A stretch of DNA of 64,000 nt, taken from the NCBI GenBank assembly GCA_051294905.1, contig CM119375.1, forward strand, positions 19,530,001 through 19,594,000, given 5' to 3'. Shown here one piece after another: positions 32,328 to 64,000 of this stretch. Positions within the stretch are counted from its first letter, which is position 1. Each line of letters begins with the position of its first letter. A program made the position numbers and the translations under genes. Under the pieces are notes generated by a model. That model was given only the letters and a program-made list of their open reading frames with translations. It ran no database searches and was not told where the DNA came from. Origin of the DNA: Botryllus schlosseri. Its lineage: Eukaryota.

Positions 32328-32631
32328 ATATTGTGAAAATAATTACTGAATTATTGTAAAGGCAGAAGTTAGGGTTGTTATGTGTTGTGTTGTGTTCGGC
32401 CCGTTTTCACGGATTAGAGTCCATGTGAAATTAACTATTAACCTAAATTTAACTCCGTTGAAATAACATAGTTTAAAAAAATCATGCTGTATTTGTTTAT
32501 GGAAGCCTAAAATTGTACGGAATTTGAGAATGTACGAGGCAAATTTGCGGTATTAACGATGATTATACAATGACTATTATTGCGAAATACATAATTGCGA
32601 AATTTTCGGATGGTATTGCTAAGCCAAATCG

Positions 32632-32766
32632 GGATTAAGTAATGCAGTAGTGAGTAAATATGGAAGCGTTAAAAATGGAAGGATTAAGTAATGCAGTAGT
32701 AAGTAAATATGGAAGCATTAAAAATGGAAGGATTAAGTAATGTAGTAGTAAGTAAATATGGAAGCA
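32632..32766. repeat. 49-bp tandem repeat, ~2.7 copies
   Basis: ggattaagtaatgcagtagt(g/a)agtaaatatggaagc(g/a)ttaaaaatggaa starting at 32632, 32681, 32730. Confidence 0.95.
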
Positions 32767-38700: not shown

Positions 38701-41700
38701 CAAACAAAACCGTTGGTTTATCGCCGACGAGTAAATAAACAGGTGAAATATCTATCTCAATCGAAGGGTATAAAGTATCACACTAAGGTAACATAATACC
38801 ACGTTGCTCGCTCTCCTATGTTCTAGCTCACGCTGAACCATAAACCTACATTTGCGAAAGCTGGTCTTCAGTTCATTGTATTACGGATTTGGTACATCCC
38901 TGTAAATACCGTTCGAAGGTTACCATATATTGCAAGTTTTGATATATCTCATATTAAGCAGTAACTCCGTTTGAAGAATTCTGGTCTATAATTTCAAAAC
39001 TAAATTGTGCTTTTGCGGACAACTCAGGTCATCCTAGCTAAAATCTGATGCAACTATACGACGCCAAGCATGCAATGGAGCAATGCCTAGCCGTATTGAG
39101 TGACTTCCTGAAATGGACTAACTCCCATTGCAGTGTGAGGCGAATATTATTGATTACTAACAATTGTGTACGTCATAACACAAAAGGGCTATAAAATTGT
39201 AAATCTACTGTAAGCCATGACAAACTTCGGCTTTGATAGATCGCACTGTTTTCAAATCCTTCTTGCGTACTGGATTACTAAAACAGGAAAAAATGTGCTT
39301 GCTCGTGCCCTATTGGAAATGTCCATTTCAAAACTAGTGTGTTGGAGATCTCTACAATATCTCTTCTACTACTAGTGTGTTCTAAGTGTTTGGACATGAT
39401 TAAAATTCACTAGAAATTGTCGTGCGGGTATGGTAATTTGGGTAATGATAGCTGCCTCCGCCAACCGGTCTCTCCAAAATATTTGAAACGATGGAACAAT
39501 TGCTTGAGGCAGTTATAGGATTTTTTGCGCTAGTCACCTTGTGATTAAATTAATCTAGGAGCACTAAGCTGAAATAGATGAGAATGTTATTTTCTCATAT
39601 CACGCCTCAAATGTCAGGAAGTTACAAGTAAGTGAAATTAAGAGCAAGGTATCGGGTTTGCGCCAGTAATAGTGGTGGGCAAACTAATTAGGTAGTCTTA
39701 AAAATAAATGTAAATTTGGCCAGATTTAAAAATACCCAAGCGAGTAGGTAGATTACAAAACATTACTACGAGAAACTTGGGTAGTGATAGATGTTTGTTT
39801 TCGATAATAGCCATTAGCATGTATGTAGCACAGGTATTTTATTTAAAAGTAACTATTGTTGCGAGTCGGCATTTACAAAAGTAAGTTTTGCGTATTGGAG
39901 ACGGCGCATGAATTGTAGATAATTCAGCAGCGTAAACGCTAGTTTGTTAGTGTTGAGCAGTAATGCGAAGTTTGTAGTATCAAAGAACAAACAAAAGATA
40001 TGATAATTAAGGAAAGCCATTGATTTCTGAGGGTAGCAAGATTTGCATTTTGGGATTATAGTTTGCAGAAGTAATTATTTGGGACAGATTGGGTGCGAAA
40101 AGATAGTTTATTGATAATGTATCAACAATAGTGACCTAGTAATCTAGAGTACAATTACATAACAATATACAGTGGTGTAGTATGAAGCAGCGCGTGTTGG
40201 TTTTTGCATTTTCTATGAATAAGGCTGAGAATGGTCGGTGGGACCTTGCTAATTTGAGTGACTACAGGATAATTTGAATTGTTGCATTTGGCAGCAAGAC
40301 TATGCGAATTGGGAAATAAGTTTACAAATTAAAGTAAGTAAAGGAGTGATATTGAATTAGTGGATTGTAGGCGCCACCACGCGGCTGGTTTGAGCCAAGC
40401 AAGAATGAATGTAATCAAAATGGCGTAAAATCGTGCTTGGAAAATGGCGCATGACCTGCTACCACTTAATTTATGTCACTTTTAGCCTTGATATCAAGGT
40501 TGGTAAATGAATGAGCGCTTAAGGTAATATCCAAGTTAGATTGAATCAGTAAACGTGAGAGAAATTGTGGTACAGCCCGTAGCTTTTTACGCAGTGCTCA
40601 TGTTGGCAATGGACCAAGAACAAGAATTGTTGATGTATGAATGACGTAACTCATTGATTAGAAGATTCAGACAGCTAAATATCTAGAATTATACAGTAAC
40701 TAATTAGCTAAGTAGTAAGCGCATATCTAGTTAGTACTTTCTTGATTTGCGTGCCACACAGAGGATCACGAACCAAAAATTAGGCCTGATTTTTAGAATT
40801 TTTCGCGTTAACAATGATCAAACATGTCCATCTGAATCTGATTATGATTTATTACGCAAATTCGGAATTGATAACAAAAAAAGAATGGCATGCCCCATGC
40901 ACTGAGGCTATATCTCATATACCGGCGGTTCATGATTATAAGGAAGTAAACCGAGTTTAGAATGTAGGTTGATGACTTGGTATCTGAAGGAGGCATGAGT
41001 TATAGTTTCATTAAGGGTGTATTAGAGATGGAATACAGGCCATACGACAATTAAAATAACATAGTCATACTCCATGTATGTATTTAAGAAAATTAGAGTT
41101 GGGGTAAGATAGCACGAACTTGGTGATGAAGTGTTGGACATAGTAATAACGGTACTGAATGAGGGCTATGAACTGAGCAATAAAGGCATAGATCCCTATA
41201 ATTTGATATTAACACCGAAAGATAGGTGCGTTAGGTAAGCGATGACCCGTCACAAAGATCTGGTATTTAATGGCCAATTGGTACAATTGTTTGACAATAA
41301 AAGAACTTGTAATAGATCAGAAGGTCGCAGCTTGGTATTTCGCTAACCAAGCAAGTATGGTTATGAAAACCATTGGCATTCTGTTAGTTACATCTTTGGT
41401 CGCTAAATCATGTTATTAGGGCCACTTAAAGGTACCGAGTACTGTAGTGGTACGCTCCAACGATGTAACAGCAATAGGACGTCCGGCGTTCCCACATTTC
41501 AATCACTAGGACACATTCATTAATATATTTATATTATATTTATATTTTTTTTCTGCTCCTATATTTGAAGATATTTGGCCATGAGATTAATAGCCTACTT
41601 CTCAAAAGTATACCCGAATCGTGATTGGAATTACAATGATCAGATCAGACTCTGTTATCGGTCTGTTGGATCCAAAATATTCATAGTAGCTGAAAATTAT

Positions 41701-42433
41701 AATGTAATGGCTTTTATGATGGCATCATACGTTTGTCCGCTCATATGGTGTCTATATCTTATAGTTAATTTATGTCAAGTACAACAACAATTCTATTCAA
41801 ATAGTTATAAATATGATGATTCTTTTCGTGCCAGGCCTAAATTTATACAAATCTAAATCATATTTTGGCGATGTGTGGTTACTGTCAGTCTGTTGGATCG
41901 ACTCACTCTCAATAGAAAAATTCATTCCCGCCAAATAAGGCCTACTTGGAAAGACATAGAATACCCCTATAAATGCTGCGGCCCGCGGCGTCGTCCCAAC
42001 TAGGAGAATGGCCCGCAAGCACGTTTGAGTTTGAGACCCCTGTGCTAGATGAAGAAACAGGACACAAAATTGGTACAATCACCTACAATTTTAATTCACC
42101 TGATTATAATTGATAGAAGGTTCTCACTTTGAGCGAGGCCTTATATAAAATACGGATAATGTAGCAGTAAAGATGAACATCGAGATTGATTTAGGATAAT
42201 GGATATCATGGTTATATCCTAGTGTGGCGCATGTAAAAAAAGGGTGATGAATCAAAATAAGACGAATAGCATGATCACTGCGTATTGTGGTGTGAACTCG
42301 CTAAGAAAAAAGAAAGATTCCTGTGGCATTCTTGGAAAATTTATGACACATAGACCTATTACATTTCCACAGACTTGGTATATATAGGGTCAAAAAAACA
42401 GCAATACATCTCTTTGCTGGTATAACTGTAGCC

Positions 42434-46967: not shown

Positions 46968-47591
46968 TTGTCATATCCTGAAAACGGTAAATTGTGCGAA
47001 ATTGCTATTTTGTTTGAAAAAAGAATGCTAGATTTTGATTATATTGAAGGTTACGATTCAACAAATTGGTGTCATTTGTACGATGTATATGACGAGTTGG
47101 ATCTATTGAATCTTAAAGAATATAACAGCGAATATGAGAGATACCAGTTTAAAGAAAAAGTATGGGAATTGCTTACGGACCAAGCCGATTGGGTTAAACA
47201 AACAGACGATGGCCTAGAAGAGGTAGCCCTAGATGAGGAATTAACCGAAGAAATTCTTGATAAATTCAACCATGTGGCAGAAGAGATATTTGAAATAAGA
47301 GCAAAGGAATACACCTCTTTGGGAAGAAGAGTCATGTTGTATGAATTAATTAGAGGACTTGTGATGAAACTTACAAACACTAATATAACAAAGGACGTGT
47401 ACCAGGAGAGAGAAATTTGTAAAGATCCGCCACATATGGAACAATGGAATTGTCAGAATAATTTGGGCCTAAAAGGCTATTCAAGTTCAATACATTGGCG
47501 AACAAAAAGGATAAGACGTATAGAAATACATCCTTACCCCTACGAAGGGGAAAGTGTGAACATTGACTCTATAATACCGGAACAATCATGA
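46968..47591 (+). CDS. Hypothetical protein, family Y (paralog of 50610-51269); start uncertain
   Basis: RVMLYELIRGLVM and WNCQNNLGLKGY; TTG start in track, upstream ATG (46954) is out of frame. Confidence 0.72.
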   Translation: MSYPENGKLCEIAILFEKRMLDFDYIEGYDSTNWCHLYDVYDELDLLNLKEYNSEYERYQFKEKVWELLTDQADWVKQTDDGLEEVALDEELTEEILDKFNHVAEEIFEIRAKEYTSLGRRVMLYELIRGLVMKLTNTNITKDVYQEREICKDPPHMEQWNCQNNLGLKGYSSSIHWRTKRIRRIEIHPYPYEGESVNIDSIIPEQS

Positions 47592-47677
47592 GTAATGACA
47601 ACGACTGTAAATAAGATTTTGACTTACAAAGGACACTTTTTCGAAGGTATAGAGTAACAAAGTGGGTTATCTAATTC

Positions 47678-48727
47678 ATGAGTAAAATGAACCGAGTGGA
47701 ACTACTAGTATTATGGCTAGGCATGTGTTATGCTATTTATCCGGAAACAATAGAACAAAAGAAGTGTACAATGGATGAAAGACGAACCATGTTATACCCG
47801 GAATGCATGCAAGGAAGCAATTTGGTACTTTGGTGTGACCATTCGAGTTATACAAGAATTCCGGATCCTGACAAGATATACTTGGCAAAATCTTGTCGGA
47901 ACACAATAAAGATATTCATCAACGACAGCTGCCTACGGGAAATAACCAAAGGACAATTGGAAAAATATAAAGACGTAGAGGTGTTGCATTGTGGTTGGAA
48001 TAAAATCCAAACCATACCAGGAGGGGTCTTCTGCAAAAATGAAAAGCTTAGGGAGATAAATTTGATGCGAAACTACATCACACGAATTGAAAAAGAAAGC
48101 TTTGCAGGCTTACACCAACTGGAAAGTTTGTACTTAAGCAGTAATTTGCTGGCGGAAATAGAAGGATCGAAATTTGCAAGCATGGAAAAGTTAAAAAGAT
48201 TATATTTGGACAACAATGTCATAAAGAAACTAAAGAATGGAACATTCATTCATTTACGTCATTTAAGAATACTAGACTTATCAAGAAACGCAATAAGCGC
48301 TATAGAAGAAGGGGCGTTCAAAGGACTGAGGAAACTGGAAACTTTGAACTTGGATGAAAATAAACTGGTGGAATTTGATATGACAATACTTGAATCTTTA
48401 TGTAATTTAGAGAGATTAACGTTGTACTATAATAACTTGCAATATTTTTCTCTGTCCTCCAACATATCGTTCAGATATCTGCATACAATTGATCTTAGTT
48501 ATAATCATGTTAAATTTCTTAATGACTCCCTATTGAGAAAATTACCAGATCTGGAAGTTTTAAAATTAAATAGATATAATAATGAAACACCTACCAGAAG
48601 ACCCTATGTACGTAAACAATCAAGACTATATGATGACGAAATGAAAAGTCTTTCCAATCGTGTGACTATACATTCAAAGTGTACATTTACCGTTATTGTT
48701 TGGCTAGTTATTATTAAACTAATGTAA
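47678..48727 (+). CDS. Intronless secreted/membrane-anchored leucine-rich repeat protein
   Basis: Signal peptide, ~8 LxxLxLxxNxL repeats, N-terminal Cys cap, hydrophobic C-terminus. Confidence 0.9.
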   Translation: MSKMNRVELLVLWLGMCYAIYPETIEQKKCTMDERRTMLYPECMQGSNLVLWCDHSSYTRIPDPDKIYLAKSCRNTIKIFINDSCLREITKGQLEKYKDVEVLHCGWNKIQTIPGGVFCKNEKLREINLMRNYITRIEKESFAGLHQLESLYLSSNLLAEIEGSKFASMEKLKRLYLDNNVIKKLKNGTFIHLRHLRILDLSRNAISAIEEGAFKGLRKLETLNLDENKLVEFDMTILESLCNLERLTLYYNNLQYFSLSSNISFRYLHTIDLSYNHVKFLNDSLLRKLPDLEVLKLNRYNNETPTRRPYVRKQSRLYDDEMKSLSNRVTIHSKCTFTVIVWLVIIKLM

Positions 48728-48831
48728 AAATGATTAAGTATATAAATTAAAAATTGGTGTAATAATTGTAATATGGTACTATGTAACTGAATTTAAATAT
48801 GTTGTATAAAGGATTTACTTAAATTATAAAA

Positions 48832-49338
48832 ATGTGTTTGGGATTACGTTGTGATGATCCAGAAATACAACATACGACATGGATACCCCAAAAAGAAATA
48901 CTAATAGACAATGGATTAAAGTCGCTGAAGTTTCTGTTAACAACATATACATTGACGGATCACTTATGTGATATAATGTATAACGAATCAAATCCACGAC
49001 TACTATATTGGAAACAAAAGTATGGTGTCACCACATACAACAATCATTGGCCTGGGAAACATCTGGTTGAAAATGAGTGGGAAGAAATTTATACAGGAAG
49101 CATTTACCCTGAAAAACCTATACAAATGGCTTTTGCAGAAATTTGCATAAACTGGGTAACAATTTTGAAAAGGGTAAATCCTGAAATGAGGGAATTTCTA
49201 AAAAGGGGAGATTCTGAAAGAGATCTCATAATGTGGATAATCTTTCCGGAAGTTCAGATCTACGCATGGGCAAAGACGCAGGGAATATCATTAAAAGAAG
49301 CCGATTGTCAATTTATGACTTTGAAAGTGCCTGCATGA
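48832..49338 (+). CDS. Hypothetical protein, family X
   Basis: 168 aa; MCLGLRC, NPRLLYWKQ, MWIIFPEVQI. Confidence 0.75.
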   Translation: MCLGLRCDDPEIQHTTWIPQKEILIDNGLKSLKFLLTTYTLTDHLCDIMYNESNPRLLYWKQKYGVTTYNNHWPGKHLVENEWEEIYTGSIYPEKPIQMAFAEICINWVTILKRVNPEMREFLKRGDSERDLIMWIIFPEVQIYAWAKTQGISLKEADCQFMTLKVPA

Positions 49339-49407
49339 AATTTAACTTTCCAATGTTTGTATATACAGAAAACTACTTTTGAAAAGACAATAAAGTTTTA
49401 AATAAAT

Positions 49408-50356
49408 ATGAAGACTAAAGAATCCAGAAAAAGAAAAAAATCTATTCAATCTTGCTCGATGTGGTATAATATCAAGTGAACGAAAATGTATAAAGTTTCT
49501 GCGATCACGGCAACTCCTTGTTCAAAAGGCAACATGTTTTAATTGTGGACAACAAATGAATGAAGAAAAATGCAAAAGAACTATGGATGGATGTAGATGG
49601 AGGTGTCCGGTTTCAAAGTGCAGGACTACCACGTCCATAAGGAAAGGATCACTATTTGAAGGAAGTAAAATAAGACTCACCCAACTTGTAATGATGATTT
49701 ATCTTTGGACCATAGATGTATCTCAACGACAAATAGCTTTTGAAGCACACGTCAGCAAGAGAACAATGGTGAATTGGACCAAGAAACTTCGTAAGATATG
49801 CTCTGTGGAAATGGAAAGAAGAGGTACCCTAATAGGGGGAATATCACAAGGTAAATCACATGTAATTCAAATTGATGAGACGTTTGTGGCCAAAAGAAAA
49901 TTTAATCGTGGAAGAATAATACGCCAACGCTGGGTTTTGGCTGGAATAGATATGAAAACGCGAGAAATGTTTGCAGAATTGGTACCTGAAGAAGGGAGAA
50001 AAACCTCTGTATTATCAGAAATAATTATGAAACACGTAAAAGAGGGATCCACTATATGGACTGATTCATTTGCCAGTTACCGCAAGTTGGAAAGCCTGGG
50101 AATGAATTATAAACATTCAGTAGTTAATCATGATCGCGAATTTGTCACTACAGAAGGCATAAATACACAATTGATCGAGGTGTCTTGGAATTTTTTTAAA
50201 GCTGCTATTAGAAGGCTGAATGGGGTATCAAGATCACTTATTCCTCATTACTTACAGGAGTGGCTCTGGAAAAGAAGGGTGGCCTTGGAGGAAAGGTTTC
50301 AACTATTTTTAGAGATAATTGCTCTTGATCCTAATTTTAGGACACTGGAACATTGA
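49408..50356 (+). CDS. Merlin/IS1595 DDE transposase #2; 5' end appears frameshifted in an A7 run (49434-49440)
   Basis: QIDET / WTDSFASY / QLIEVSW triad; frame of 49556 is open upstream to 49412 and encodes CFNC of the Zn ribbon; ATG 49408 joins it after one A is removed. Confidence 0.85.
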
Positions 50357-50609
50357 AAACAATGTTGGTCACTATGTGCAATATCATTAGAGATGAGAGA
50401 TTTGAATCTTTAGGGAAGCAATAGAGGCATGTATGATAATCTACATGTTTAGAAAACCTATGAAATGTTTCTATTATTGTTGTGTCATAGTGAGTGAATG
50501 TATTACATGTATGTTATATGATATCTAATATCGAGATTTGATGCATTGAAATCTTGAATCAGGATCTTTTATTGTTATTGCACATTATTGTTATATTCGC
50601 AGGGATAAA

Positions 50610-51269
50610 ATGTATCTATCTGAAGTACAGGATCATAATACTGCTATTTTTTGTAAATTAATAAATCAACTAGATAAAATCGACGTGCGAAAAAATGCTG
50701 GATGTCTAAAGTTGCTGATGGATATGTTGAAAAACTTTTTTGAACAAGAACATAATTGGTACAAAAGACAACTTCCATGTGGCGACAGGAAACCCCATGG
50801 AGAAACGCCGGAGGACGAAATTTCTAGTAATACGGACTCTGACGACTCCCAGGATTCTGCCATTGTGAAAGATTCCTCAAGACAACGACTCATAGTATGG
50901 AGTAAACAGACAATACGACCCGATGACGACACATGGACTATAATTACGGAAACTTTGATGGGAGTTGTCCGAAGAATACCTCCCCTATGTATGAGACGAG
51001 TAATATATGAAGTGATACGAGGAGTAATAATGGGCCATACAAGATTGTTAGTATGTGCAAATAGTCTGGCTTATGTTACAGATGCGAATTGCAAATGGAC
51101 TTGGCACAGCCAAACCAACCTAGGAGTAAAAGGTTATATGTCGTTGAGTTCTGATACCTCCGTTATGGATGCATATATATACATATACTCGAAGAAAGTA
51201 GATAAGAAAGCCCAGTCAATGAATCAATATCTGGAAAATTCCTATATTTTGGACATACATCTCCATTAA
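50610..51269 (+). CDS. Hypothetical protein, family Y
   Basis: 219 aa; RRVIYEVIRGVIM, WHSQTNLGVKGY. Confidence 0.75.
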   Translation: MYLSEVQDHNTAIFCKLINQLDKIDVRKNAGCLKLLMDMLKNFFEQEHNWYKRQLPCGDRKPHGETPEDEISSNTDSDDSQDSAIVKDSSRQRLIVWSKQTIRPDDDTWTIITETLMGVVRRIPPLCMRRVIYEVIRGVIMGHTRLLVCANSLAYVTDANCKWTWHSQTNLGVKGYMSLSSDTSVMDAYIYIYSKKVDKKAQSMNQYLENSYILDIHLH

Positions 51270-51508
51270 CTGTTGTCACATATTGACAATTAAATAATGA
51301 CTTTACACCCAATCCATGGAATTTATCGAACCAATGCTAATTTGGAACCTCGAGAAATCTTATATAATGATATTTTTTTTAACAGAATGTTTATGTATTA
51401 TTACTAGAATGTTGGATTGGTATGGTTATATTTAGACATTTTGATCTGTATTATTGAACGCCTGTTCCATCGAAAGCAATTACACCGAGAAGTGACCGAA
51501 TTGAAACT

Positions 51509-53200
51509 ATGGGCATTCTGATGAAAAGAGATCGTGATCCTCCTGGACATAATTGCGTTTATATTCCACCTGGAGATCACCGGGTTGAGTATTACAGACT
51601 TGCAACGTTCAAACATTTTTCGAAAGAAACTCCTGTGATACCGAGCTATCTAGCCGCTGCTGGTTTCTATTGGACAGGATTTCAAGATAGAGTAAGATGT
51701 TACTGCTGTGGCGTATCTGTGGAAAAATGGGTCACTGGAGATGATCCTTTTGATGACAAGTGGCATAAATCTACTTGTGACATGGTGACCATACAACATG
51801 GTTATAACTTGCCTATTTCAAATTGCTCAAGGAGGCTCCTTTTTGAACAAATGAGGTGCCACCTTAACCTTACTACAAGAAGTCAGCAAACTAATCGGAA
51901 TGTGCAAAGACCGACTATCAAAGAGGAAAAATGTCCCTTACCACAAACCGTGTTTGCGAACATTTGTGACCAAGAACATGAGACTTCATTGCGATCAGCA
52001 AATTTGAGGAGTGAACTAGAGAGAAGAAGAACCTTTGACAAATGGCCTTCCTATCCTACTCCATACTTGGTAGGGGAATTGGCAAAACAGGGGTTTTTTT
52101 ACCTGGGAAACCTTGACAGAGCGCAATGTTTTTCATGCTCAGGAGTACTGAGAAATTGGGCACCCACTGATAATGTCCTTGAACAACATAAAAGACATTT
52201 TACAAAATGCAAAATGGCAAATAACGAGTATGCAGGAAATATGCCCTTGACAGACTCCGAGAGAAATCAGGCAGATAATGAACTTAAAATAAAAATTGAA
52301 AGGTTAACTACTAATAGGGGAGAACCTCCGGATCCATCGCCAGAAGAACAACTCCAGTTGGTGGAAAGATTCCCTTGCCTTTACCCGATAAATTTGCATA
52401 TGACATCGTTACAGCAAAGAATATCTTCGTTTAATGAAAAATGGCCCAGGATCCTCGCAACAACGGAACAATTGGCTAAAGCGGGTATGTATTATCTAGG
52501 GGATTCGGACAGGGCGAAATGCTTTTACTGCAATGGAGGATTACAAAACTGGAACTACAATGATGAGCCGTGGACAGAACATGCAAAGTGGTTTCCTGGT
52601 TGTGAATATGTTTTGCAAATGAAAGGTATTGATTTCGTTTTACGACTAAGAGATGAACATCCCAATCTCAATCGACCATCGATAAGGAATGCAATATGTC
52701 TTGATGCACCACGAGAGGAGATACGAAGGAACCATAATCGACCAAGGTTATCTAGACAATACATAAACAGGATGCAACTGGAAGACATGGGATTTACGAG
52801 AGATCAAATAGAAGGAACTATAAATAGACAGATTAATGATCCTTTCTCTACTGGTGATATAATTCAGGATTTACTAGAGACAGTAAATACAATTACCGCC
52901 AGTCCAACGAAAACAACACAACAAGGCGATAGTATATCTGAAAATAATCACGAAGTAAACAACAACAAAGAAACGAAAGAAGCAGCAGTTGCAGAAATAA
53001 TGTCGGTGGATGAGATCGCGCAAAATTTGAAAGAAATACAAGAAGTTGTGCTTTGCAAAAATTGCAAGAGAAACAAAAGTGAAATTACTTTCATACCTTG
53101 TGGACATTTATGTAGTTGTGAAAAATGTGCAACAAATACTGAAAGATGCAACATTTGTGGTGAAACAATACTTGAAAAGATAAAGGTGTATAGAGCTTGA
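51509..53200 (+). CDS. iap: Intronless inhibitor of apoptosis protein (3 BIR + UBA-like + RING)
   Basis: Three R..[T/S]F..W..LA..GF/MY..C..C..W..H..C BIR repeats; C-terminal CxxC..PCGH..C..C..CxxC RING. Confidence 0.95.
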   Translation: MGILMKRDRDPPGHNCVYIPPGDHRVEYYRLATFKHFSKETPVIPSYLAAAGFYWTGFQDRVRCYCCGVSVEKWVTGDDPFDDKWHKSTCDMVTIQHGYNLPISNCSRRLLFEQMRCHLNLTTRSQQTNRNVQRPTIKEEKCPLPQTVFANICDQEHETSLRSANLRSELERRRTFDKWPSYPTPYLVGELAKQGFFYLGNLDRAQCFSCSGVLRNWAPTDNVLEQHKRHFTKCKMANNEYAGNMPLTDSERNQADNELKIKIERLTTNRGEPPDPSPEEQLQLVERFPCLYPINLHMTSLQQRISSFNEKWPRILATTEQLAKAGMYYLGDSDRAKCFYCNGGLQNWNYNDEPWTEHAKWFPGCEYVLQMKGIDFVLRLRDEHPNLNRPSIRNAICLDAPREEIRRNHNRPRLSRQYINRMQLEDMGFTRDQIEGTINRQINDPFSTGDIIQDLLETVNTITASPTKTTQQGDSISENNHEVNNNKETKEAAVAEIMSVDEIAQNLKEIQEVVLCKNCKRNKSEITFIPCGHLCSCEKCATNTERCNICGETILEKIKVYRA

Positions 53201-53329
53201 TGGAGCAGGCAGGACTATTATTTTGTGGCATGAATGCTCTTGATGCATATGTATAATGCATAACGTTACTAGTTACTTTTGCGCGTAAAATTGAACATAT
53301 GATTTTAAAGTATTTTATTCTGTATTAAG

Positions 53330-53785
53330 ATGACTAGAGTATTAGAGAATTGGGAAATTACGCTAGCCAAGAAACAAATTAATGAATACTATGATGAGTT
53401 TGAACAGGAATACCATCATCAAAATTTTGAAATATGGAAAAATACCCCAAAGGAAAAATTCAAACAATTAATAAAGAAATACCTTCATCATTGTTTTGCG
53501 AATGTGACAGAAAAGCTTTTTGATAAGCTTTATGACGCACATAGTGATATTGCTCGCGTTTTTGTTACAAAAGATTTTAATCTGGCCCAATATACATGGT
53601 TTGGACTTGTTCTAAAACTACATCCGGCTCATAAATATCTACCAGAAGAATTTCTGGATGAAAGATTACCACAAATGGAATTGCAAGATTCTACAACATT
53701 ACTTCTAAATGCTCGAGAATTTGAAACTGTTGCTGTTCCAATTTTAGAAGACGCTTTTTCGAAAATTGTTATACTGCACGATTAA
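53330..53785 (+). CDS. Hypothetical protein, family Z subtype A
   Basis: 151 aa; paralog of 55470-55928. Confidence 0.78.
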   Translation: MTRVLENWEITLAKKQINEYYDEFEQEYHHQNFEIWKNTPKEKFKQLIKKYLHHCFANVTEKLFDKLYDAHSDIARVFVTKDFNLAQYTWFGLVLKLHPAHKYLPEEFLDERLPQMELQDSTTLLLNAREFETVAVPILEDAFSKIVILHD

Positions 53786-53790
53786 GAGGA

Positions 53791-54186
53791 ATGTCTCGAA
53801 GAACCATGAGTAACCAGGAAATATTGCAAATGGGACATGAATCTGCAGTGTGCGACTTGAAATATTATTTTGACATGTTTTGTAAATACTATGAAGAAGA
53901 TGTGGAAATTTCCGACAGATGGCAAAGATGGGCTATGACAAGACCCAATGACATTGTTGGAATGCTGACGCTGTATATTGATAAAGTTTATGGGAGTGCT
54001 TTGTCTCCGCAAGGCAAGGCTCGGGGGTATCATGCTGCTATCAAAGAACATAATAGGATTGCAATTATTACACTGGGAAACTATAAGGAAGCCAAATTTC
54101 TTTGGTACCAACATATTGTTCGTATGCATCCCATGAAGGAGAACTTTTCAGAACAATGGATAAAAGGATGTTTGAAAGATGATTAA
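53791..54186 (+). CDS. Hypothetical protein, family Z subtype B
   Basis: 131 aa; paralog of 56094-56543. Confidence 0.78.
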   Translation: MSRRTMSNQEILQMGHESAVCDLKYYFDMFCKYYEEDVEISDRWQRWAMTRPNDIVGMLTLYIDKVYGSALSPQGKARGYHAAIKEHNRIAIITLGNYKEAKFLWYQHIVRMHPMKENFSEQWIKGCLKDD

Positions 54187-54293
54187 CTGAAATGATACAT
54201 AGACTGCACCAAATTTACTATATCTAATATAACAACTAGAATTAAAACTTTTATTTGTGTAGTCATGTTGATTTACTGATTAAGACTTTTTGA

Positions 54294-54818
54294 ATGTTTA
54301 ATAATGTTTGGGTTTTTTGTGTAAGAAATTTTAAGACATTAGGAATTTATTTGACCTTTAATCGTGATATGTTGGAAATCAATTATGAAAAGTACGAATA
54401 TGTGCCCAAAGACCCACAAAAGAAAGAATTGAACCGAAAGAGGTTCAGACCGTGTCTATACCCTACGATACCTGACAGCAGAGTTGCTTGGCTAAAGATG
54501 GGAGTTGTACATGAACGAATAAAAGAAAGAATAGAAAACTTTCCGAAGTTAACAGCCAATGACATGGAGTATGTATTGAAAGACTTTCTTGTCTGGTTAT
54601 ACCGGGACCATGAGGTGGCGGAACAATTGGAATGCGCAAAAAAAGTACTGGAGCGCATTGTGGAAGAAAACTTTGGAGAAAGTCCTGCGTACTATTTGTA
54701 CTTATTTCTACGATATGTATTGGCTATAGCTAATGTTGATGAAGATTGGAACATTACTAGCAGAACTATTGCCGGATTTTCACGTGACATGTACGCTATG
54801 GATAAACGATTGAATTAG
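54294..54818 (+). CDS. Hypothetical protein
   Basis: 174-aa ATG ORF inside the cluster, no recognised motif. Confidence 0.65.
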   Translation: MFNNVWVFCVRNFKTLGIYLTFNRDMLEINYEKYEYVPKDPQKKELNRKRFRPCLYPTIPDSRVAWLKMGVVHERIKERIENFPKLTANDMEYVLKDFLVWLYRDHEVAEQLECAKKVLERIVEENFGESPAYYLYLFLRYVLAIANVDEDWNITSRTIAGFSRDMYAMDKRLN

Positions 54819-54878
54819 TGATGTTCCCCTTTTCTTTTATGTGTGTAAGTTTTATTGGATAGTATAAGTCTGCATCGA

Positions 54879-55334
54879 ATGGCAAAACATAGATTATACG
54901 TTGAACGGCGAAAAATTAATCAAGAAATACGAACAAATCCTGTAATTTTGCAAGCAGGGCCATTGGACGAGTCGGATATCTATGTTTGGCAAGCACTTTT
55001 GCGAGGACCATCAAAAACACCATATGAAAAAGGAACATTTCTTCTTAGAATTGAATTTCCAACGGAATATCCATTCAAGCCTCCGAAGATCAAATTTGAA
55101 ACCAAGATTTTCCATCCGAATATAAGCCGTAAGGGTACCATATGTATTGACATTCTTGCCGATGAATGGTCTCCCGCTTTAACGTTGGGAAAAGTATTGG
55201 TCTCGATTTCGTCATTATTGGCTTCCCCTAACCCAGAAGATCCAATGGATGTTGAGAGCGCCAGACTGTATCGGGATGACTATGAAAGTTATCAGAAGAT
55301 GGCAAGAAACTGGACTGATATGTATGCTAAGTAA
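54879..55334 (+). CDS. Intronless ubiquitin-conjugating enzyme E2 (UBE2D/Ubc4-like)
   Basis: GP..TPYE.G.F...I.FP.EYPFKPPK..F.TKIFHPNI..G.IC(catalytic)IDIL..WSPAL. Confidence 0.95.
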   Translation: MAKHRLYVERRKINQEIRTNPVILQAGPLDESDIYVWQALLRGPSKTPYEKGTFLLRIEFPTEYPFKPPKIKFETKIFHPNISRKGTICIDILADEWSPALTLGKVLVSISSLLASPNPEDPMDVESARLYRDDYESYQKMARNWTDMYAK

Positions 55335-55469
55335 TTACTATGTATCTAGTATGCTTATCACAATTATTGAATATTTTGGAAATGCTGTTATACTTATATG
55401 TATTAAAAATGTTAGCAAGGAAAGTTTCCGGTCCGATAATCAACGTAAAATTTTCTATATTAAGAAAAT

Positions 55470-55928
55470 ATGGGTGAAAAAATTGCTAGAGTAAAGCATG
55501 AACTTGACGTGTTCTTCGATTCATTTGAAAAGAAATATGAACATAAAGATTTCGGCAAGTGGGCTGCAACAACACGGGATGAATTGGAGATATTTATGAC
55601 ACCTTACTTGAGGATTTGCAACCTGAGAGTATCCGACAGACTGTTTGATGCGCTATACAAAAAGCATTTAGCTATCGCCCGCATGATATTGTTTGAAAAT
55701 TATGAACATGCGAAATTTTGTTGGTTCGTCTTCTGTGTTGGATTACATCCTGCCTCAGATGTAATACCTGAAGGATGGGTGTTGGAAAGAATGCCTGACT
55801 CTGATAAAACTGGATTTTGTATCTATACCACGGAAAAACTCTTTTATGATACTTTTCCCTCTGATGTGAGAGCTGCTATACTTATACATAAAATGAAATG
55901 TTATGGCTGTAATAATAATGGACAATGA
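55470..55928 (+). CDS. Hypothetical protein, family Z subtype A
   Basis: 152 aa; FFDSFEKKY, LFDALYKKH, WF....LHPA. Confidence 0.78.
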   Translation: MGEKIARVKHELDVFFDSFEKKYEHKDFGKWAATTRDELEIFMTPYLRICNLRVSDRLFDALYKKHLAIARMILFENYEHAKFCWFVFCVGLHPASDVIPEGWVLERMPDSDKTGFCIYTTEKLFYDTFPSDVRAAILIHKMKCYGCNNNGQ

Positions 55929-56093
55929 ATTCATGGATTGTATATTGTATTTTATGCTAAATCAAAATATCTATTAAAATTATGTATGACATGTATGCCA
56001 ATTTATTGAGTGTTGCATTGAGTTACTTCATTTTCGTCTGCATAACCCAATGGACCCTTATTAGGATTATTAATATTTTTCAGAAAATTAAGT

Positions 56094-56543
56094 ATGAGTA
56101 ACGTGATAATAAATGATAATGGTGACGTTGATGTCACCAGAATGGTGGGCTCCAATGTGGCGGAACAAGATTTGATATTTTATTTTTGGCTATTCAAAGA
56201 ACGATATGAAGCGAGAATACTCCCCTCTCATAGATGGTACGAGTGGTCAAAGACTCCACCCAAATATATCAAACTTGGATTGAAATGTTTTTTCAAACGA
56301 ATTAAAGAAACTCTTTCTGATGAGAAGCCCCTTGTTATTGACTACCAAGGAATACTAGAAAACCATAAAATGATAAGAGACATGGCCTCTGGAAATTATG
56401 AAAAGGCTAAACTTTTGTGGTTCAACTATATGACTCGAATGCATCCTATGGAAAATTTGATCACGGATGAATGGGTGAAGGAACAAGCCGAATCTACGGA
56501 ACCCTTTTATCCTGAGGATACTATAGATGTCTTAGTTCAATGA
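56094..56543 (+). CDS. Hypothetical protein, family Z subtype B
   Basis: 149 aa; GNYEKAKLLWFNYMTRMHPM. Confidence 0.78.
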   Translation: MSNVIINDNGDVDVTRMVGSNVAEQDLIFYFWLFKERYEARILPSHRWYEWSKTPPKYIKLGLKCFFKRIKETLSDEKPLVIDYQGILENHKMIRDMASGNYEKAKLLWFNYMTRMHPMENLITDEWVKEQAESTEPFYPEDTIDVLVQ

Positions 56544-56823: not shown

Positions 56824-57675
56824 TATATAAGGCGTTATACACTGCTACGCCCTTATTTTTAAGCAGGACCCTAGGGATTGAAGCCCTAGTTTTAGGGAAA
56901 CAAAATCCGAAGTTTACGGTGCGAACCCTTATTATAGGCTAAATAAATAATTAATGAAAAACAATATAAAATCTTATAAAATCTTGAACAACTAAACCAT
57001 TAAATTAACTAAATAATGAACACTAAAACCTGTTTGAACAATCTGCAATGCCTGTATTAAGTGGCATCTAAGTTAAGGGTAGTATCATGCGGTCCGATTA
57101 AGAGGATCATAGTGATTATAATTGCACTGAAGACATGACGTCCTTAATGTTGATATGTTATATTAAAATTGATTGAAACATTATAATCGCAAGTATACTG
57201 AAGAATATTATGATGAATAGGAATTGATATTTGAAATGCATTGATATTTACGGCAGGAAAGGCCGTCGCATCAATTATATGCGAAAACAAACCTTGGAGT
57301 ATTAAAAATGTTTATTAATTGTGTATGATGATGTATAGGTTAAACATGCCTTGTGTTATAATTGATGGATGATGTGTATGCCAATTTTAACCAAGCTTTG
57401 CATAGAGTTACCACATTTCCGTCTGCGCAATTAACTGATTGGAGTATTTGGTTGTATTAAGATTATCAGTAGATAAAGGTAGATTAAAATTCTGGACCCC
57501 AGGGTCATTGTCAACTTGAGAAGAAACAATCCTACAACTGTTGTTGCTCCAATCACCATTTACAGACGTCGTCAAGATATTAAAGCAAACGAAAGGCAAC
57601 GCTTTACTAGGAAGTAACCCGAACAAGTGTGGACTACTCGCATGACAATCGTTGTGGAGCTGCACTATAAAAACA
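56824..57675 (+). promoter_or_regulatory. Candidate LTR core (end of U3, R, U5): TATA 56824-31, AATAAA 56942-47, terminal ...AAAACA 57675
   Basis: TATA, poly(A) signal and CA end in canonical order immediately before the PBS. Confidence 0.6.
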
Positions 57676-57679: not shown

Positions 57680-57699
57680 TGGTGGCCAGTACGGGGATC
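57680..57699 (+). promoter_or_regulatory. Primer binding site complementary to tRNA-Ile(AAU) 3' end
   Basis: tggtggccagtacggggatc is the reverse complement of GATCCCCGTACTGGCCA+CCA; 4 nt after the CA. Confidence 0.9.
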
Positions 57700-58005: not shown

Positions 58006-60822
58006 ATGCGAAGGATGTTGAAAGCATTCAAAAGGAAAAAGCCGTCAGAAGCAACAGACGAACTCAAACAAGGGATTACCTTGCTTAAAGCTACACAAAA
58101 ACGCCATGAAGATGTCCGGCGACAAGAAAGACAACTGGCTAAGGACGTGGCTGAACAGACAGAGCTATTGAAAGAGGTAAAGACAGCTCTGCCGGAAACC
58201 ATGAAAGGGTTAGAAAAGGCAAAGAAAGAGGTTCGAAAAGCTCAAGCAGACCTCAAAGCTGTTTGTGATGCCACAACAAAAGTTAGCGGAAAGGTCTCCA
58301 CCGACGTGCTGAATGACATCCTTAAGTCAGAGTTCGAGCTCGGAAGGTCGCATGCTCAGGCTACGCGAGATAGCGTCCAATCTCCCGTTTTGACAGTAAC
58401 TCCCAATGCACCAGAACATGATCCTCCGGCTTACGTCCCGCTCGCTGAGCAGCCGTCGGATAATGTACAACCAGGACCAACAATGACGGTCCGTAAGGGT
58501 CTGGATTGTCATACTGTGACGGCTGTCTATCCTAAATTACCACGTTCTGATTCATCCTCGTTGTCAGACTCTCAAATAGGGACGACACCATGCTTCCATA
58601 TTGGCAGTGGTGCGCGCCCCAAACAAAAAGACGGTAACCCAACAACGATGGGAACAAGGGCGAAACCTGCAAAAAGTTCCTTGAGTAACTATAGGGGATA
58701 TCAAGGTTGGCAAGAAGGCCGCAATTCGAAGACAGAATCACGTATAAAAGCGGATGGCGCTTCACAACGTGTTACCTTTCGTAGTCCAGGCGAGGAACAA
58801 TCTGCCGCAGAAGACAGTGAGGTCGACTTTCAGACTCGATTAAAGCATCTTTCCAAAGAATTAAGAGATAATATAAGGTCTCTACGGGGCGGTGCCAGCC
58901 CTCAGGATTCTGCGGATGAATCTAGCGAGGAGGAACCTGCCGATATCTCTCGTTCTCCTGATACACCTCGCGCTACCTCCACTCCAAAAGAGTATGGGGG
59001 AAGGACTAGGCGACAACGGCAGCAACAGCTACATAAGAATTCTGGTGGTTTTGCCCCAGTACTTAATGTATCTGCTAAAATCCAGTCAGAAAAAGAAATG
59101 CTTCAGCTTATGATGGACCCTGGGGACATGCCACTGCTAAAATGGATGGAGAATTCGATGCGAAGAATACGCCACGGTCCTGGAAATACGGATGTGGATG
59201 TTATTTTGGCTAATGCACTGCAGAAGAAATTGAGGGCTGCTGGTCGACACAAACAGGCTACCCAACTGGGAAATTTTTTTAATACCAATTCGGGGGAAGC
59301 AGAATGGGAATCGGTGATGCGATCTCTTTCCTTGTCCAATCCCCAGGGTTTGGTAAATGACGAAAAGATCATTGGAGAATTCCGCAGAAATTATCGCTGG
59401 GAGGATGAGCCGCTACCTCGGCTGAATAGCGCCTTGAAGCAACTAGAAATAGACATGGATAGTCTTATTGAGGATAATCCAGATGGATTACGTCTTTTCC
59501 GAAATTTACGACAACGCCTTCCGGAAGCGCTCAGACTGATGTTGCGAGGCTGGGAAGAGGATAAAACTTGGCGGGACGTTGCGGAGGAACTACAACTTGT
59601 TTGGAACTCCGAGTTCCTGGATGAACAAGAGACACGCCCCAGGTATCAGGAAACAAAGGAAGTCCTTGATACAAAACCGTCATTGCCGCCAGTACACATT
59701 TATAATGTTCAACCTGCAGGACAAATAGTGCACAGTTATCCCACTCATGGAAGAGAGGACAGTCAGCTCAACACTCCTCCTCCACCTGGTGACACCCCAC
59801 CGCCGGTGGTACAATCACCCTCGCCCCTACAACCACTGAATAACTTTGGGGGGGCAACACCTCCTGGATCACCTAGGGGGATCTCACCGCGTCAGCTTGC
59901 TAATGCAGACCAGGTACCGTTACAACGTCGGAATCCTCAACGTAAAGCACGCAACAATCGATTTCCCACCCGCATCATGAATGGTAATGGAGTTGGTAGG
60001 CGTGGACAAGGCCCGAGGGCCAGGCCAGTACACCAACAGGATGGGCGTAACGCATCATCGAGACCTAACGGACAGCCAACAAGAACAACAAGATCTTCAC
60101 GCGCTAGTCCAGGACCGGAAACCGCAAACCGAAGTCCGCGAGTGGCGAATACGCAAGATTCCGGGATGGGTGCAGACAACTCACAAATTACGCCGTCCAG
60201 CAGCCAGGAAGCCCGCAACATTGCGGATAGTCAAGGTGAGAGATACAATTTTCTTGGAAACCCGAATATTTTCGCTCCTCTAGGATTGTATCTAAATCCC
60301 ACTCAGGGACAATCCCTGTCCGTTTGTTACTACTGTAAGGCACCGGGACATCAATCCCGAAATTGCGTGGCTAAGTTCATACTGTGGCTAAACGATAAGG
60401 TTCTTGCTAGGGATGAGGAATTAGGATGGGTAATTCGTGGGCGAGCACGACCTGTACCCCCTCATGTTAAAGAATCTGCAGAACGAAACTGGAAACCGTT
60501 CCTTGCGAGAAATAACATACTAACAATTGAAGGACTTGATCGATATCTGGCTGCTCAAGGTTCACCCTCGTTTACACAGAGGACCGCTCTGTGCGAAGCC
60601 TATTATGATACCAGACCAAAAAACCGAGATAGAACCCACTGGCATGATAGGGATCAATGGGGTCCTCATGGACCACCTGCACGTCCATCTGGGGGAAATA
60701 CCCAAGTGGCCTGGACGAAACCTCAATATCATGATCGGCCGCGTCAATATGATGCTTCATATTGGACGGACGAGGAACTGAATCAAGGTATACGACTTTC
60801 AAAAAACGCCTTGGGGTGCTGA
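58006..60822 (+). CDS. gag: Gag-like polyprotein, 938 aa
   Basis: Position between PBS and pol; N-terminal coiled coil; PPAY and YPKL motifs; CYYCKAPGHQSRNC zinc knuckle (60325-60366). Confidence 0.88.
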   Translation: MRRMLKAFKRKKPSEATDELKQGITLLKATQKRHEDVRRQERQLAKDVAEQTELLKEVKTALPETMKGLEKAKKEVRKAQADLKAVCDATTKVSGKVSTDVLNDILKSEFELGRSHAQATRDSVQSPVLTVTPNAPEHDPPAYVPLAEQPSDNVQPGPTMTVRKGLDCHTVTAVYPKLPRSDSSSLSDSQIGTTPCFHIGSGARPKQKDGNPTTMGTRAKPAKSSLSNYRGYQGWQEGRNSKTESRIKADGASQRVTFRSPGEEQSAAEDSEVDFQTRLKHLSKELRDNIRSLRGGASPQDSADESSEEEPADISRSPDTPRATSTPKEYGGRTRRQRQQQLHKNSGGFAPVLNVSAKIQSEKEMLQLMMDPGDMPLLKWMENSMRRIRHGPGNTDVDVILANALQKKLRAAGRHKQATQLGNFFNTNSGEAEWESVMRSLSLSNPQGLVNDEKIIGEFRRNYRWEDEPLPRLNSALKQLEIDMDSLIEDNPDGLRLFRNLRQRLPEALRLMLRGWEEDKTWRDVAEELQLVWNSEFLDEQETRPRYQETKEVLDTKPSLPPVHIYNVQPAGQIVHSYPTHGREDSQLNTPPPPGDTPPPVVQSPSPLQPLNNFGGATPPGSPRGISPRQLANADQVPLQRRNPQRKARNNRFPTRIMNGNGVGRRGQGPRARPVHQQDGRNASSRPNGQPTRTTRSSRASPGPETANRSPRVANTQDSGMGADNSQITPSSSQEARNIADSQGERYNFLGNPNIFAPLGLYLNPTQGQSLSVCYYCKAPGHQSRNCVAKFILWLNDKVLARDEELGWVIRGRARPVPPHVKESAERNWKPFLARNNILTIEGLDRYLAAQGSPSFTQRTALCEAYYDTRPKNRDRTHWHDRDQWGPHGPPARPSGGNTQVAWTKPQYHDRPRQYDASYWTDEELNQGIRLSKNALGC

Positions 60823-60844: not shown

Positions 60845-63800
60845 AGACAATTTAATAATTCAACATACAAAAACTGTACATAACTCATCATTACCCTTAT
60901 TTACATTTCTTGATATGCCGGATGACCCCCTACAGCCCGACTTTACGGAATTGTTTGGAGGCCAGTTGTTGTATTTAATTGATACAGCGACTGGTACAAA
61001 ATTCCTAGCTGACACGGGGAGCATCCCCAATTTGATAATGAAAAAGGTCGTTATAACTAAATATCCACGAAGCTGGGAAAAACGTCAACCAATAGACATG
61101 GCATTAACTGGAATAGGTGGCTCGTCCCAAGTGGACTCTTTTGTAGTGATTGATATTGGTGGACTGCCCGTTCCATTTGTAACCGGACCAGGAGTCCCAC
61201 TTAATATCGTAGGGCTGAAATGGATTGAGGAAGTCCAACAATTACCAGGCGTAACTACGGAATTCAAAACCCCGTCTAACGCAAATGAGGAGCTGTCTTT
61301 AGCATCATTACTCGAAGGGAATCATTATGACCAAGGTAACGGAACCGAAGTTGGAAGCAGTACTAGCTACACTGTAACCAACGATGGGTTGATGGATGCT
61401 GCAAACCAATTTAGCGTGGAGCGGAAAATGGCCGTTGGCGCGAGTACCGAGATGGAAATAACCACTGGTGCGAGCGACGAGTTGAAATTAGCAACTTACG
61501 TCACACAGAACCCATGGGAAACTATAGGTGTTGAGACAGGAATGCCTGCTGACACCGTTAAGGAAGACGTCGAGCGTGGAATCCCCGCTGGCGTAAAGAT
61601 GGACCTGCACGAGAAAACTGGTCCAGAACACTCTCGCGGATGCACTTATCCGGATGACGATAGGAATCTGGCCCATAGTTGCATGGCGACTACTACAACT
61701 GACATCCAGAGCGAAATGTCCTCTGGCGAAAATAAAGACCTGCATGAGAAAACTGGTCCTAAGTGCCTTCGTGGATGCACTTGTCCGAATAACCTTAATG
61801 ATTCGGCCCATAGTTGCATGACGACAGCCGCAGTAATGAGTACTTTCCCAAAAGGTTCAAACGAAGCAGCAATTGCCGGTCAACCGGATGTACATCCGGA
61901 CATGTCCGACAAGGAGTCTGGGGATTTTATGATGCACGTCTCCCCAGAAAAAGGGTCCCCGGCGGAAAAGGAGTCCGTCGGCGTGACGGTAGGTGCGGGC
62001 ACGCGCCGAGATCAGAGGCCTACATCGAAGGACCTCGCCCTCTCTCCACCAACACCAACAACTCGGTCATCACGAATCTCAAATCAGCCTATGGCTGGGC
62101 CAGTAACCACGTATGTTTTGCAGAAAGACACTCACCCGCGAGTCAAGACGGAACTTGAGGATCTCTGCGCAAAATCCGTGGCGCTGGCCAAACTCCCATA
62201 CAAACCTCCTGATCTGACGACTCCAGAAAACACCATTATTGCTGATGATGTTTGGAAAGCCGTCTACACACCGTTCGCGTCTGAACTCGAGGACCTGCGA
62301 GGCCATCTTGGCGGCCCGCAAACCATGAAATACAAATGCGACATCGAGCTTAAAGATCCCTCGACGAAACCGTTTGTGTCTGGTCCTTATAATCTGAAGG
62401 GGAAGGGCCAGGCGAAAGCATTAAAAGAAGCGGTAGACAATTTCCTGGATTTGGGCGTCATTGAACGAGGCTTTGCCGAATGGAAGTTGGCTATATTTGT
62501 GGTCCCTCAGAAAATGAATGAGAGACAGAAACAGGAGGATGGATGGAAGCAGGCCTGGAGAGTAGTACAGAATCTCCAACCCCTTAATGCGGCCATAAAA
62601 TCAATAGAAGTACCTCCACCTCTTGTACCGGACGTAAAGCAGCTCGCCCAAGGCAGAGAAGTGCTTTCTCTCCTTGATTTGAAGAAGGCCTATTTCCACA
62701 TGGACGTAACGGAAAGGTCTAAACAATATGTGGGCATAGCCATCAAAGGAATGCACGTAAGATGGCGTAAGATGCCGATGGGGCTAAAGACCGCGGTGGC
62801 TCTTTGGTCTGCGAATATGCAAGAATGTGTGGTGAAACCTATCACGGAAAAATACCAACAACACATGAAACAAGTTGGCAGGACAGATGAGGAGAATGCG
62901 ACGCCTATGGAGGCCTACATAGACGACATTTTTCTCAGCACAAGAACGGTAGAAGACCACTTACTGCTGCTACGCATGGTATTTGAACAGCTCGCCAAGA
63001 TGAAACTGACGGTTAGCATCAATAAGTGTTTCATTGGAAAGCGAAAAGTGAACCTTTTGGGGGCAACCTTGACGGGGAAAGAAATTGAGGTTCAGCCCGA
63101 AAGATTAAGGGCTTTACGCGAACTCTCACCACCCCACAATGTATACGAGTTAAGGGGGTGGATTGGCGCACTTCGCTATATTTCGGAACATATTCCTGAG
63201 TTAAGCTTGAAGCTGGCCAAATTCGATGCGCTGACAGGCAAGGTCCCTGCGACACAAGGACGAGTGACGCCTGTGCTATGGACCAACGAATTACTGCAGG
63301 ACTTCAAAACGGCACAAGCAGCCCTCGAAGATGCTAAGGTTCTGTATCATCTGGATCCAAATCTTTCCATTTTTGTGGAAACGGACGCTTCAGATATTGG
63401 ATTTGGATCAATTATTTTCCAGACGGAAAAAGGGTGTAAACCACCGTTCGGAAAGGTTTACCCAATTGCTTACTACAGCCAAAAGTGGGCGACTCCAACG
63501 GCAAAGGCTTATGACCCATGTACAAAAGAATTGAAAGCCCTAAAAGATTCGGTGGAAAAATGGCAATCAATGTTGAGAGCCTTACCCTTTACAATAATTA
63601 CTGATAATACTGGGGTTTTTGGGCTCCTCAAAAGAATGACGGACAAAGCGAAAAATCCAAGCCCAAAACCCCTAATTCAGAGGTGGCTCAATCATCTAGC
63701 AGGATTCCAAATAAAGGAGGTAATTCATCTAAGTACGATGCAGGTATTTACGTCAGATGGATTGTCCCGTTCTTATTGGATGGAGATGGCTGCGGGAGAA

Positions 63801-64000
63801 GATGATCCACATGTTTGGGCGACGATTCCCAAGAAAAAGGGCGTTTCGAACCGACATAAAAGACCCCGACCGGAAAAAATACAGCAGATACTGATGTATC
63901 ACTGTCGACATGAACTTTGCGACAACTCGGTGAACGGGTTCCATCCTTGGGAAGATATTTGCAGTATCTTTCAAAAGAAAACTGGTGAACAAATGGAAAT
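60801..64000 (+). CDS. pol: Pol polyprotein, 3'-incomplete: aspartic protease, long spacer, reverse transcriptase, RNase H
   Basis: Not in the ORF track; translated by hand with no stop over ~1066 codons. FLADTGS (61011), LDLKKAYFH, MPMGL, YIDD (62916-27), TDAS/KEL/ITDN/RW..L/DGLSR. Integrase not reached. Confidence 0.95.

Follow-up and report, generated by a model that had tools for sequence, protein, structure and literature searches.

A stretch of 64,000 nucleotides (nt) of the Botryllus schlosseri genome (GCA_051294905.1, contig CM119375.1, positions 19,530,001 to 19,594,000 of the forward strand; hereafter the window, with positions counted from its first letter) carries an intronless gene for an inhibitor of apoptosis protein (IAP) and, nearby on the same strand, one for a UBE2D-like ubiquitin-conjugating enzyme (E2). 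Do the two form a ubiquitination pair of their own, with the IAP as ubiquitin ligase (E3), and what kind of element carries them? An earlier note on this DNA proposed such a pair, retro-captured from the host and residing in a long terminal repeat (LTR) element. We conclude, with somewhat better than even confidence, that the IAP and the E2 are selected cargo, likely captured separately and likely acting independently, on a retroelement that has Merlin-type ends and no integrase. Papers cited by PMC number are, unless a whole-text count is given, cited for portions of their text.

The two genes are:

51509-53200, + strand: IAP open reading frame (ORF), 563 amino acids, uninterrupted, with BIR1, BIR2, BIR3, a weak UBA-like MGF segment and a C3HC4 RING with a non-canonical E2 face
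54879-55334, + strand: UBE2D-like E2 ORF, 151 amino acids, uninterrupted and divergent, with intact catalytic and RING-binding residues

The ORFs, Pfam and alignment agree on what had been noticed at first sight, namely an intronless IAP with three BIRs and a RING and an intronless UBE2D-like E2, with intact Zn ligands and catalytic Cys, about 1.7 kb apart. The separation is 1,678 nt, and three further ORFs (starting at 53330, 53791 and 54294) sit between them. Pfam identifies three BIR domains (expectation value, E, 3e-59) and zf-C3HC4_3 (E 3.6e-9) in the IAP and UQ_con (E 3.8e-48) in the E2. The Zn ligands of the IAP are complete, comprising three Zn-binding BIRs and a C-terminal RING with eight of eight ligands. 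BIR2 and BIR3 have the spacing C-x2-C-x16-H-x6-C; that of BIR1 is shifted (C-x2-C-x18-H-x3-C), as is common to most of the ascidian IAP rows aligned. The closest protein relatives of the IAP are ascidian, with 44% identity at best. In the E2, HPN (79-81) and Cys89 are intact, and the equivalents of Asp87, Phe62, S94-P95-A96 and Asp117 invariant, in all 22 sequences compared. The place of Ser22, the backside ubiquitin site of UBE2D/UbcH5 (PMC6349121), is occupied by Gln in 21 of the 22 and by Lys in the other. The best solved-structure matches are UBE2D2/D3, at about 53% identity (counted from the alignment).

The proposal of an E3-E2 pair becomes doubtful at the E2-binding face of the RING. 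In cIAP1 the contacts with UbcH5B include Val573 and Met575, while the linchpin residue is Arg606, and the R606A mutant is defective (PMC6349121). The place of Val573 is Asn in 21 of 22 copies (His in one) and that of Met575 is Lys in 22 of 22, so that the hydrophobic E2-binding core is missing. The linchpin place is Gly in 22 of 22, with Asp in two divergent copies and Lys in the host donors. XIAP, which has Tyr at this place, is also without the linchpin Arg, and its absence is therefore not decisive alone; the element RING may still be active. The departure appears to be mostly inherited, the putative host donors having Gln, Lys and Lys at the three places. A complex prediction of the RING dimer with E2 and Zn, in which alignments were not used, scored 0.00 and is not evidence either way.

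Both genes are maintained. A RING lies within 4 kb and on the same strand for 27 of 28 E2 matches of the family, and an E2 for 27 of 28 RING matches; of 21 other copies, 19 have an open IAP and 20 an open E2. The comparison of nonsynonymous and synonymous substitution (dN/dS) suggested with the first description indicates purifying selection, the pairwise means (over pairs that are not independent) being 0.18 for the IAP and 0.10 for the E2. By IAP domain the values are 0.30 (BIR1), 0.09 (BIR2), 0.11 (BIR3), 0.13 (UBA-like) and 0.19 (RING). Six neighbouring unassigned ORFs are also under purifying selection (dN/dS 0.12-0.29), so that selection is not specific to the IAP and E2. Nor are these two more co-inherited than their neighbours: the Spearman correlation of pairwise synonymous distance is 0.56 between IAP and E2 as against 0.72 and 0.69 for each with its adjoining neighbour. 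In one copy the IAP is lost and the E2 still open. The idea that they are simply the host's own single-copy loci is rejected, both genes being cargo of a multicopy mobile element.

The origins of the two genes appear to differ. The nearest host IAPs, at 7.16 and 7.23 Mb of contig C12, have RINGs 67-69% identical to that of the element and are split by GT-AG introns where the element IAP reads straight through, which favours a spliced mRNA as the captured form. Other animals, too, have IAP retrocopies without introns (PMC13159474). The nearest host E2 relatives form an intronless tandem array (C1:34.1-34.5 Mb) and are 79-80% identical at best; since they are already intronless, the missing introns of the element E2 are uninformative on its capture route. 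The claim of retro-capture is thus supported for the IAP and not for the E2. The tree requested for the E2 (57 rows, a subset of 115 matches plus 13 database proteins) nests the element E2s among these host paralogues, as a 12-row clade (98/98, one row being a database protein) within a 23-row clade (98/94) that includes host tandem copies. Overall, it is likely from the sequences that IAP and E2 were captured from the host in separate events. The element E2 does not appear to descend directly from the host's conventional UBE2D: against UBE2D2 the score is 270 bits for a more conventional gene at C9:12.0 Mb and 171 bits for the element E2, and the tree places the two in separate clades. No intron-containing conventional host UBE2D was found; an exon match at C11:18.19 Mb was rejected as UBE2L3-like. 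The array itself (C1:34.12-34.49 Mb) contains about 20 intronless, fast-evolving UBE2D-like host genes, whose identity to the element E2 is 52-79%; the 40 kb examined around the closest of them is free of element genes.

As to function, the IAP probably blocks death of the expressing cell via BIR2/BIR3 and the E2 probably serves host ligases rather than the RING of the element.

The carrier is about 39.8 kb long, delimited as a block shared with a second copy on contig C14, and extends from window position 24873 to 635 nt past the window end. Its ends and principal genes are:

24865-24872: target-site duplication, left copy, 8 bp; its right counterpart adjoins the right end of the element, 635 nt beyond the window
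24873-24896, + strand: left terminal inverted repeat (TIR), starting GG; identical to the reverse complement of the right end at 17 of 24 bases
25272-26111, + strand: Merlin/IS1595-type DDE transposase 1 (PF12762)
49556-50356, + strand: Merlin/IS1595-type transposase 2, 39% identical to transposase 1
58006-60822, + strand: gag-like ORF, with one CCHC knuckle and a weak Pfam match (E 5e-4)
60915-64000, + strand: pol, with a protease-like DTG motif, reverse transcriptase (RT; YIDD), RNase H and Tpt1/KptA; it extends 370 nt past the window

The features that define Merlin elements are present: TIRs starting with GG, duplications of 8 or 9 bp and a DDE_Tnp_IS1595 transposase with D-D-E. We fetched 30 left and 30 right ends. 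All 30 left ends have the terminal GG and all 30 right ends the CC; 24 left ends could be paired, the other six having no partner among those fetched. At the 24 paired ends the duplication is a perfect 8 bp in 20, a perfect 9 bp in one, 7/8 in one and absent in two, and the length is 37.6-40.4 kb in 16 of the 24. The two transposases match PF12762 with E values of 7e-10 and 2.5e-17. Of 30 left ends, 27 have a full-length open frame for transposase 1, and its D-D-E triad is present in 29 of the 29 that match. The assignment to an LTR element is therefore wrong: no direct repeat exists between the element ends, and thus no LTR pair, and there is no integrase. The pre-gag region is not repeated elsewhere in the element, in its left flank or in the 45 kb downstream.

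The order gag, protease, RT, RNase H is kept, with RT and RNase H recognized by Pfam and the protease by its DTG motif, without a Pfam match. Instead of an integrase, pol ends RT-RNase H-PF01885 (E 5e-11), and its two nearest database relatives likewise end in PF01885 with no integrase. This Tpt1/KptA domain (RNA 2'-phosphotransferase-like), fused to pol at the place of the integrase, keeps its motifs over 30 copies, with a dN/dS of 0.23.

Three short features, all on the + strand, point to an RNA cycle:

25084-25097, + strand: polypurine-tract-like run, 212 nt inside the left end
57438-57461, + strand: exact 24-nt DNA copy of the host spliced leader, the likely start of an internal R-like region
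57680-57697, + strand: primer-binding site, 18 nt, complementary to the 3' end of host tRNA-Ile(AAT), 242 nt after the leader

Thousands of RNA reads have their 5' ends at 57437 and run on into unrelated sequence, and the sequence at 57438-57461 agrees with the 'Chordata 1' consensus for spliced leaders (PMC3795323, Table 1). The leader was found in 23 of 27 stretches examined (exact in 20), and in at least two of the four negative cases the stretch ends before it. The genome has 236 exact matches to the leader; of the first 30, 15 stand before a related gag, with identity down to 36%. We considered whether the window copy is a spliced-leader RNA gene and rejected this, there being no GT donor 3' of the leader. 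The 16-nt leader of another ascidian genus gave no match above chance. Most copies (57462-57469 in the window, and its siblings) have an acceptor-like YAG within 4-8 nt after the DNA leader, the intervening bases being variable. For comparison, the long gag-pol RNA of Caenorhabditis elegans Cer1 is described as not trans-spliced in the part of the paper cited (PMC3315495). The pattern complementary to the primer site occurs at 10 genomic sites, and the four examined are all tRNA-Ile(AAT) genes; the site itself is present in 13 stretches, whereas one sufficiently long stretch of the family did not show it. The purine run is at the same place in 31 of 31 left ends (in its strict A3+G4+ form in 24), and we take it to resemble retroviral polypurine tracts. 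RT/RNase H has a dN/dS of 0.04 over 30 copies. In one single-cell run there is a one-directional depth of 119x just upstream of the leader compared with 0-3x in the cargo bins, a pattern that 3' ends of transcripts would produce.

A single internal block (leader plus primer site) before gag suggests a circularly permuted, reverse-transcribed genome, and we infer a circular intermediate. As a circle, the carrier would read leader, primer site, gag, pol, joined ends, purine tract, transposase, env, cargo and again leader. This would be the order of a retrovirus, opened between pol and the enzyme of integration, with the transposase at the place of the integrase. A terminally redundant RNA would come from the circular form and be capped by trans-splicing; reverse transcription would be primed by tRNA-Ile, with the DNA-encoded leader as the strand-transfer homology; and the Merlin transposase would integrate at the joined ends. 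Template switching in such an RNA cycle would explain the spliced IAP.

A number of points weigh against our reading of cargo and carrier. The 21 copies used for dN/dS were taken from the best IAP matches, which favours intact copies. IAP and E2 have been kept together since the copies diverged to 63-74% identity, and the element RING retains the equivalents of His588 and Ile604, the C-terminal aromatic residue and all Zn ligands. The RING of the host donors is already non-canonical, so that co-adaptation with a divergent E2 lineage is possible. The tree of the RING exon, which is too short to name a donor or sister, leaves the origin of the IAP without a named donor; that of the E2 is midpoint-rooted, and the host-to-element direction is one that we infer. 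On the side of the carrier, the purine tract is 32 kb from the leader and does not adjoin it. Across four runs, the RNA depth of both IAP and E2 is for the most part about 1x or less. A junction of right end to left end has no match in the assembly, and no circle junction was present among the joints listed for the 8-kb copy described below (three contig sets and one RNA run). A depth peak at 52005-52671 in two bulk runs was not counted as expression, these probably being host IAP reads that match in part.

The best surviving alternative, which we nevertheless consider unlikely, is that the non-canonical RING and the divergent E2 are co-adapted, forming a private pair insulated from the E2s and E3s of the host. 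Co-occurrence at 27 of 28 loci would fit this, as would the purifying selection on both (including the RING, at 0.19), the retention by the E2 of the F62, S94-P95-A96 and D117 equivalents in 22 of 22, and the fact that both donor lineages are divergent in the host too. However, all eight of the cargo genes that we tested occur together and under similar selection (dN/dS 0.10-0.29), so that the co-occurrence of IAP and E2 is not specific. In addition, the RING differs from that of cIAP1 at three contact residues for E2 or E2~Ub, there is no extra co-inheritance, one copy has an open E2 after loss of its IAP, and other elements carry an IAP or an E2 alone. The two are thus probably not a dedicated enzyme pair.

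Slightly less probable is a decoy role. Here the RING, no longer recruiting an E2, would serve dimerisation and give a stable IAP without self-degradation, and the E2, without Ser22, would compete for host RING ligases and favour mono-ubiquitination. This would account for a RING that has a changed E2 face and a retained C-terminal aromatic, and for the replacement of the backside-ubiquitin Ser22 by Gln (21 of 22) or Lys (1 of 22); another element family of this genome also carries RING-less IAPs. Yet the catalytic Cys and HPN are invariant in the E2, and host paralogues share most of the changes, which may therefore be traits of the lineage rather than adaptations of the element.

The carrier poses a separate question, and here too we think the alternative improbable: that it is a giant Merlin DNA transposon moving only by cut-and-paste, with the retroviral genes and the cargo as passengers and no present reverse transcription. 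All of the defining Merlin features are indeed present, no circle junction was found and pol transcripts are near zero in the four RNA runs mapped. Against it stand the RT/RNase H constraint given above and the exact leader and primer site kept before gag across distant families. A further difficulty is an 8-kb copy flanked by a perfect 8-bp duplication, which consists of the left 435 nt, the leader region, the primer site, gag, pol and the right end and has neither transposase. Least probable of all is the combined proposal of an animal 'temperate pararetrovirus', enveloped and with a permuted genome, entering and leaving by Merlin, using the leader as strand-transfer repeat and a pol with a Tpt1-like end, and keeping its host cell alive with a private co-adapted IAP-E2 pair.

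Other elements of this genome carry comparable genes. In two multicopy Polinton-like families (a tentative label, the capsid call resting in part on a weak match, E 0.03), a sister E2 is the immediate neighbour of a gene for Bcl-2 (E 9e-20) or for a caspase domain (E 4e-13). A palindromic family contains two inverted copies of a RING-less three-BIR IAP. Families related to the carrier have a near-identical broken IAP remnant (a BIR1 piece and RING) just upstream of leader and gag, with no E2 in the 10 kb examined. The picture is one of many elements that take genes singly from a common stock of regulators of cell death and ubiquitin.

The remaining genes of the carrier within the window are:

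26241-28757, + strand: envelope-like glycoprotein, with a hydrophobic N-terminus, a basic cleavage-like site at amino acid 480 and a C-terminal membrane segment
28845-32327, + strand: second membrane glycoprotein, with a Thr/Ser-rich stalk; weakly like the first (E 8e-9)
47678-48727, + strand: leucine-rich-repeat cargo gene
53330-53785, + strand: ORF of no assigned function, paralogue of those at 53791, 55470 and 56094; dN/dS 0.14
53791-54186, + strand: ORF of no assigned function, same four-member family as 53330; dN/dS 0.18
54294-54818, + strand: ORF of no assigned function; dN/dS 0.22
55470-55928, + strand: ORF of no assigned function, four-member family of 53330; dN/dS 0.12
56094-56543, + strand: ORF of no assigned function, four-member family of 53330; dN/dS 0.25

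The envelope-like label comes from the sequence features listed, the ORF at 26241-28757 having no Pfam family. The four paralogous ORFs (53330, 53791, 55470 and 56094; 22-31% identical) flank the E2, are all under purifying selection and belong to no Pfam family; an ESM Atlas search with that at 55470 gave weak leads only. The cargo ORFs of 47025-56543 all lie head to tail with gaps of 5-253 nt, like the ascidian operons that are resolved by trans-splicing; no leader-joined reads over them reached the listing threshold. About 10 kb of the element (32328-42433) is nearly ORF-free and about 98% identical to the C14 copy. The insertion site is a copy of an older repeat (24540-24872 plus the right flank), also present at 8672-9203, and the host flank includes an ORF with an immunoglobulin I-set domain (17892-18347). 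An Rfam search of 24800-64000 gave no match.

How do these genes and their carrier compare with known systems? Host-gene cargo is carried by DNA-replicating viruses, as in the case of the baculovirus IAPs and the E2 of African swine fever virus. Adintoviruses/Polintons resemble the carrier in having IAP and Bcl2 homologues as anti-apoptotic, host-derived cargo (PMC8502044) but are DNA-replicating. The cargo recalls cIAP1/UbcH5B, with a BIR-BIR-BIR-UBA-like-RING IAP and a UBE2D-class E2 that has intact L1/L2 loop residues (PMC6349121), and departs from it in the Asn, Lys and Gly at the RING contact places and in an E2 about 53% identical to UBE2D2 and without Ser22. The IAP-E2 pairing alone is thus a variation on known viral cargo, and the novelty rests on the carrier.

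The Burro elements of planarians, giant gypsy-like LTR retrotransposons, are likewise longer than 30 kb, with gag, pol and env, and carry BIR as well as apoptosis- and ubiquitination-linked domains (PMC6431247). Unlike the carrier, whose ends and integrating enzyme are of Merlin type, they have LTRs and an integrase, and the cited text on them mentions no E2 (PMC6431247). Merlin/IS1016-IS1595 transposons share with the carrier the GG TIRs, 8-9-bp duplications and DDE_Tnp_IS1595, and highly imperfect TIRs are known among them (PMC8101967). The same paper never uses the term reverse transcriptase (0 matches), and the carrier differs in its 40 kb, two transposases, gag-pol, env-like genes, primer site and many cargo ORFs. 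Teratorn, a piggyBac-herpesvirus fusion of teleosts, provides a parallel in combining a virus-like genome with a borrowed DDE transposase and TIRs, and excision as a circle has been proposed for it (PMC6431247, PMC10175614). It joins a DNA-polymerase herpesvirus to piggyBac, whereas the carrier joins reverse transcription to Merlin. The pararetroviruses (caulimoviruses) of plant hosts are tRNA-primed, have no integrase and produce a terminally redundant RNA from a circular DNA template. The carrier is similarly tRNA-primed and without an integrase, the circular template being in its case only part of the model; it differs in its precise ends and 8-bp duplications, pararetroviruses having no dedicated integration enzyme. 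Our literature search, which lay outside subscription papers, Repbase and supplements, found neither a Merlin-bounded gag-pol element nor a retroelement with an IAP plus an E2.

As far as that search reached, the carrier is of a new kind, outside the LTR class, with retroelement-like genes and Merlin-like integration. It would represent a new integration route for a reverse-transcribing element, using transposon ends and a transposase related to those of bacterial ISs (insertion sequences) in place of LTRs and integrase, and its leader, primer site and purine tract give a testable model of replication. The cargo would be a case of a virus-like element of an invertebrate chordate acquiring a spliced host gene, as retroviruses acquire oncogenes. 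Several unrelated mobile elements of this genome have acquired regulators of apoptosis and members of one fast-evolving E2 lineage, which suggests a host defence that acts through cell death and ubiquitin.

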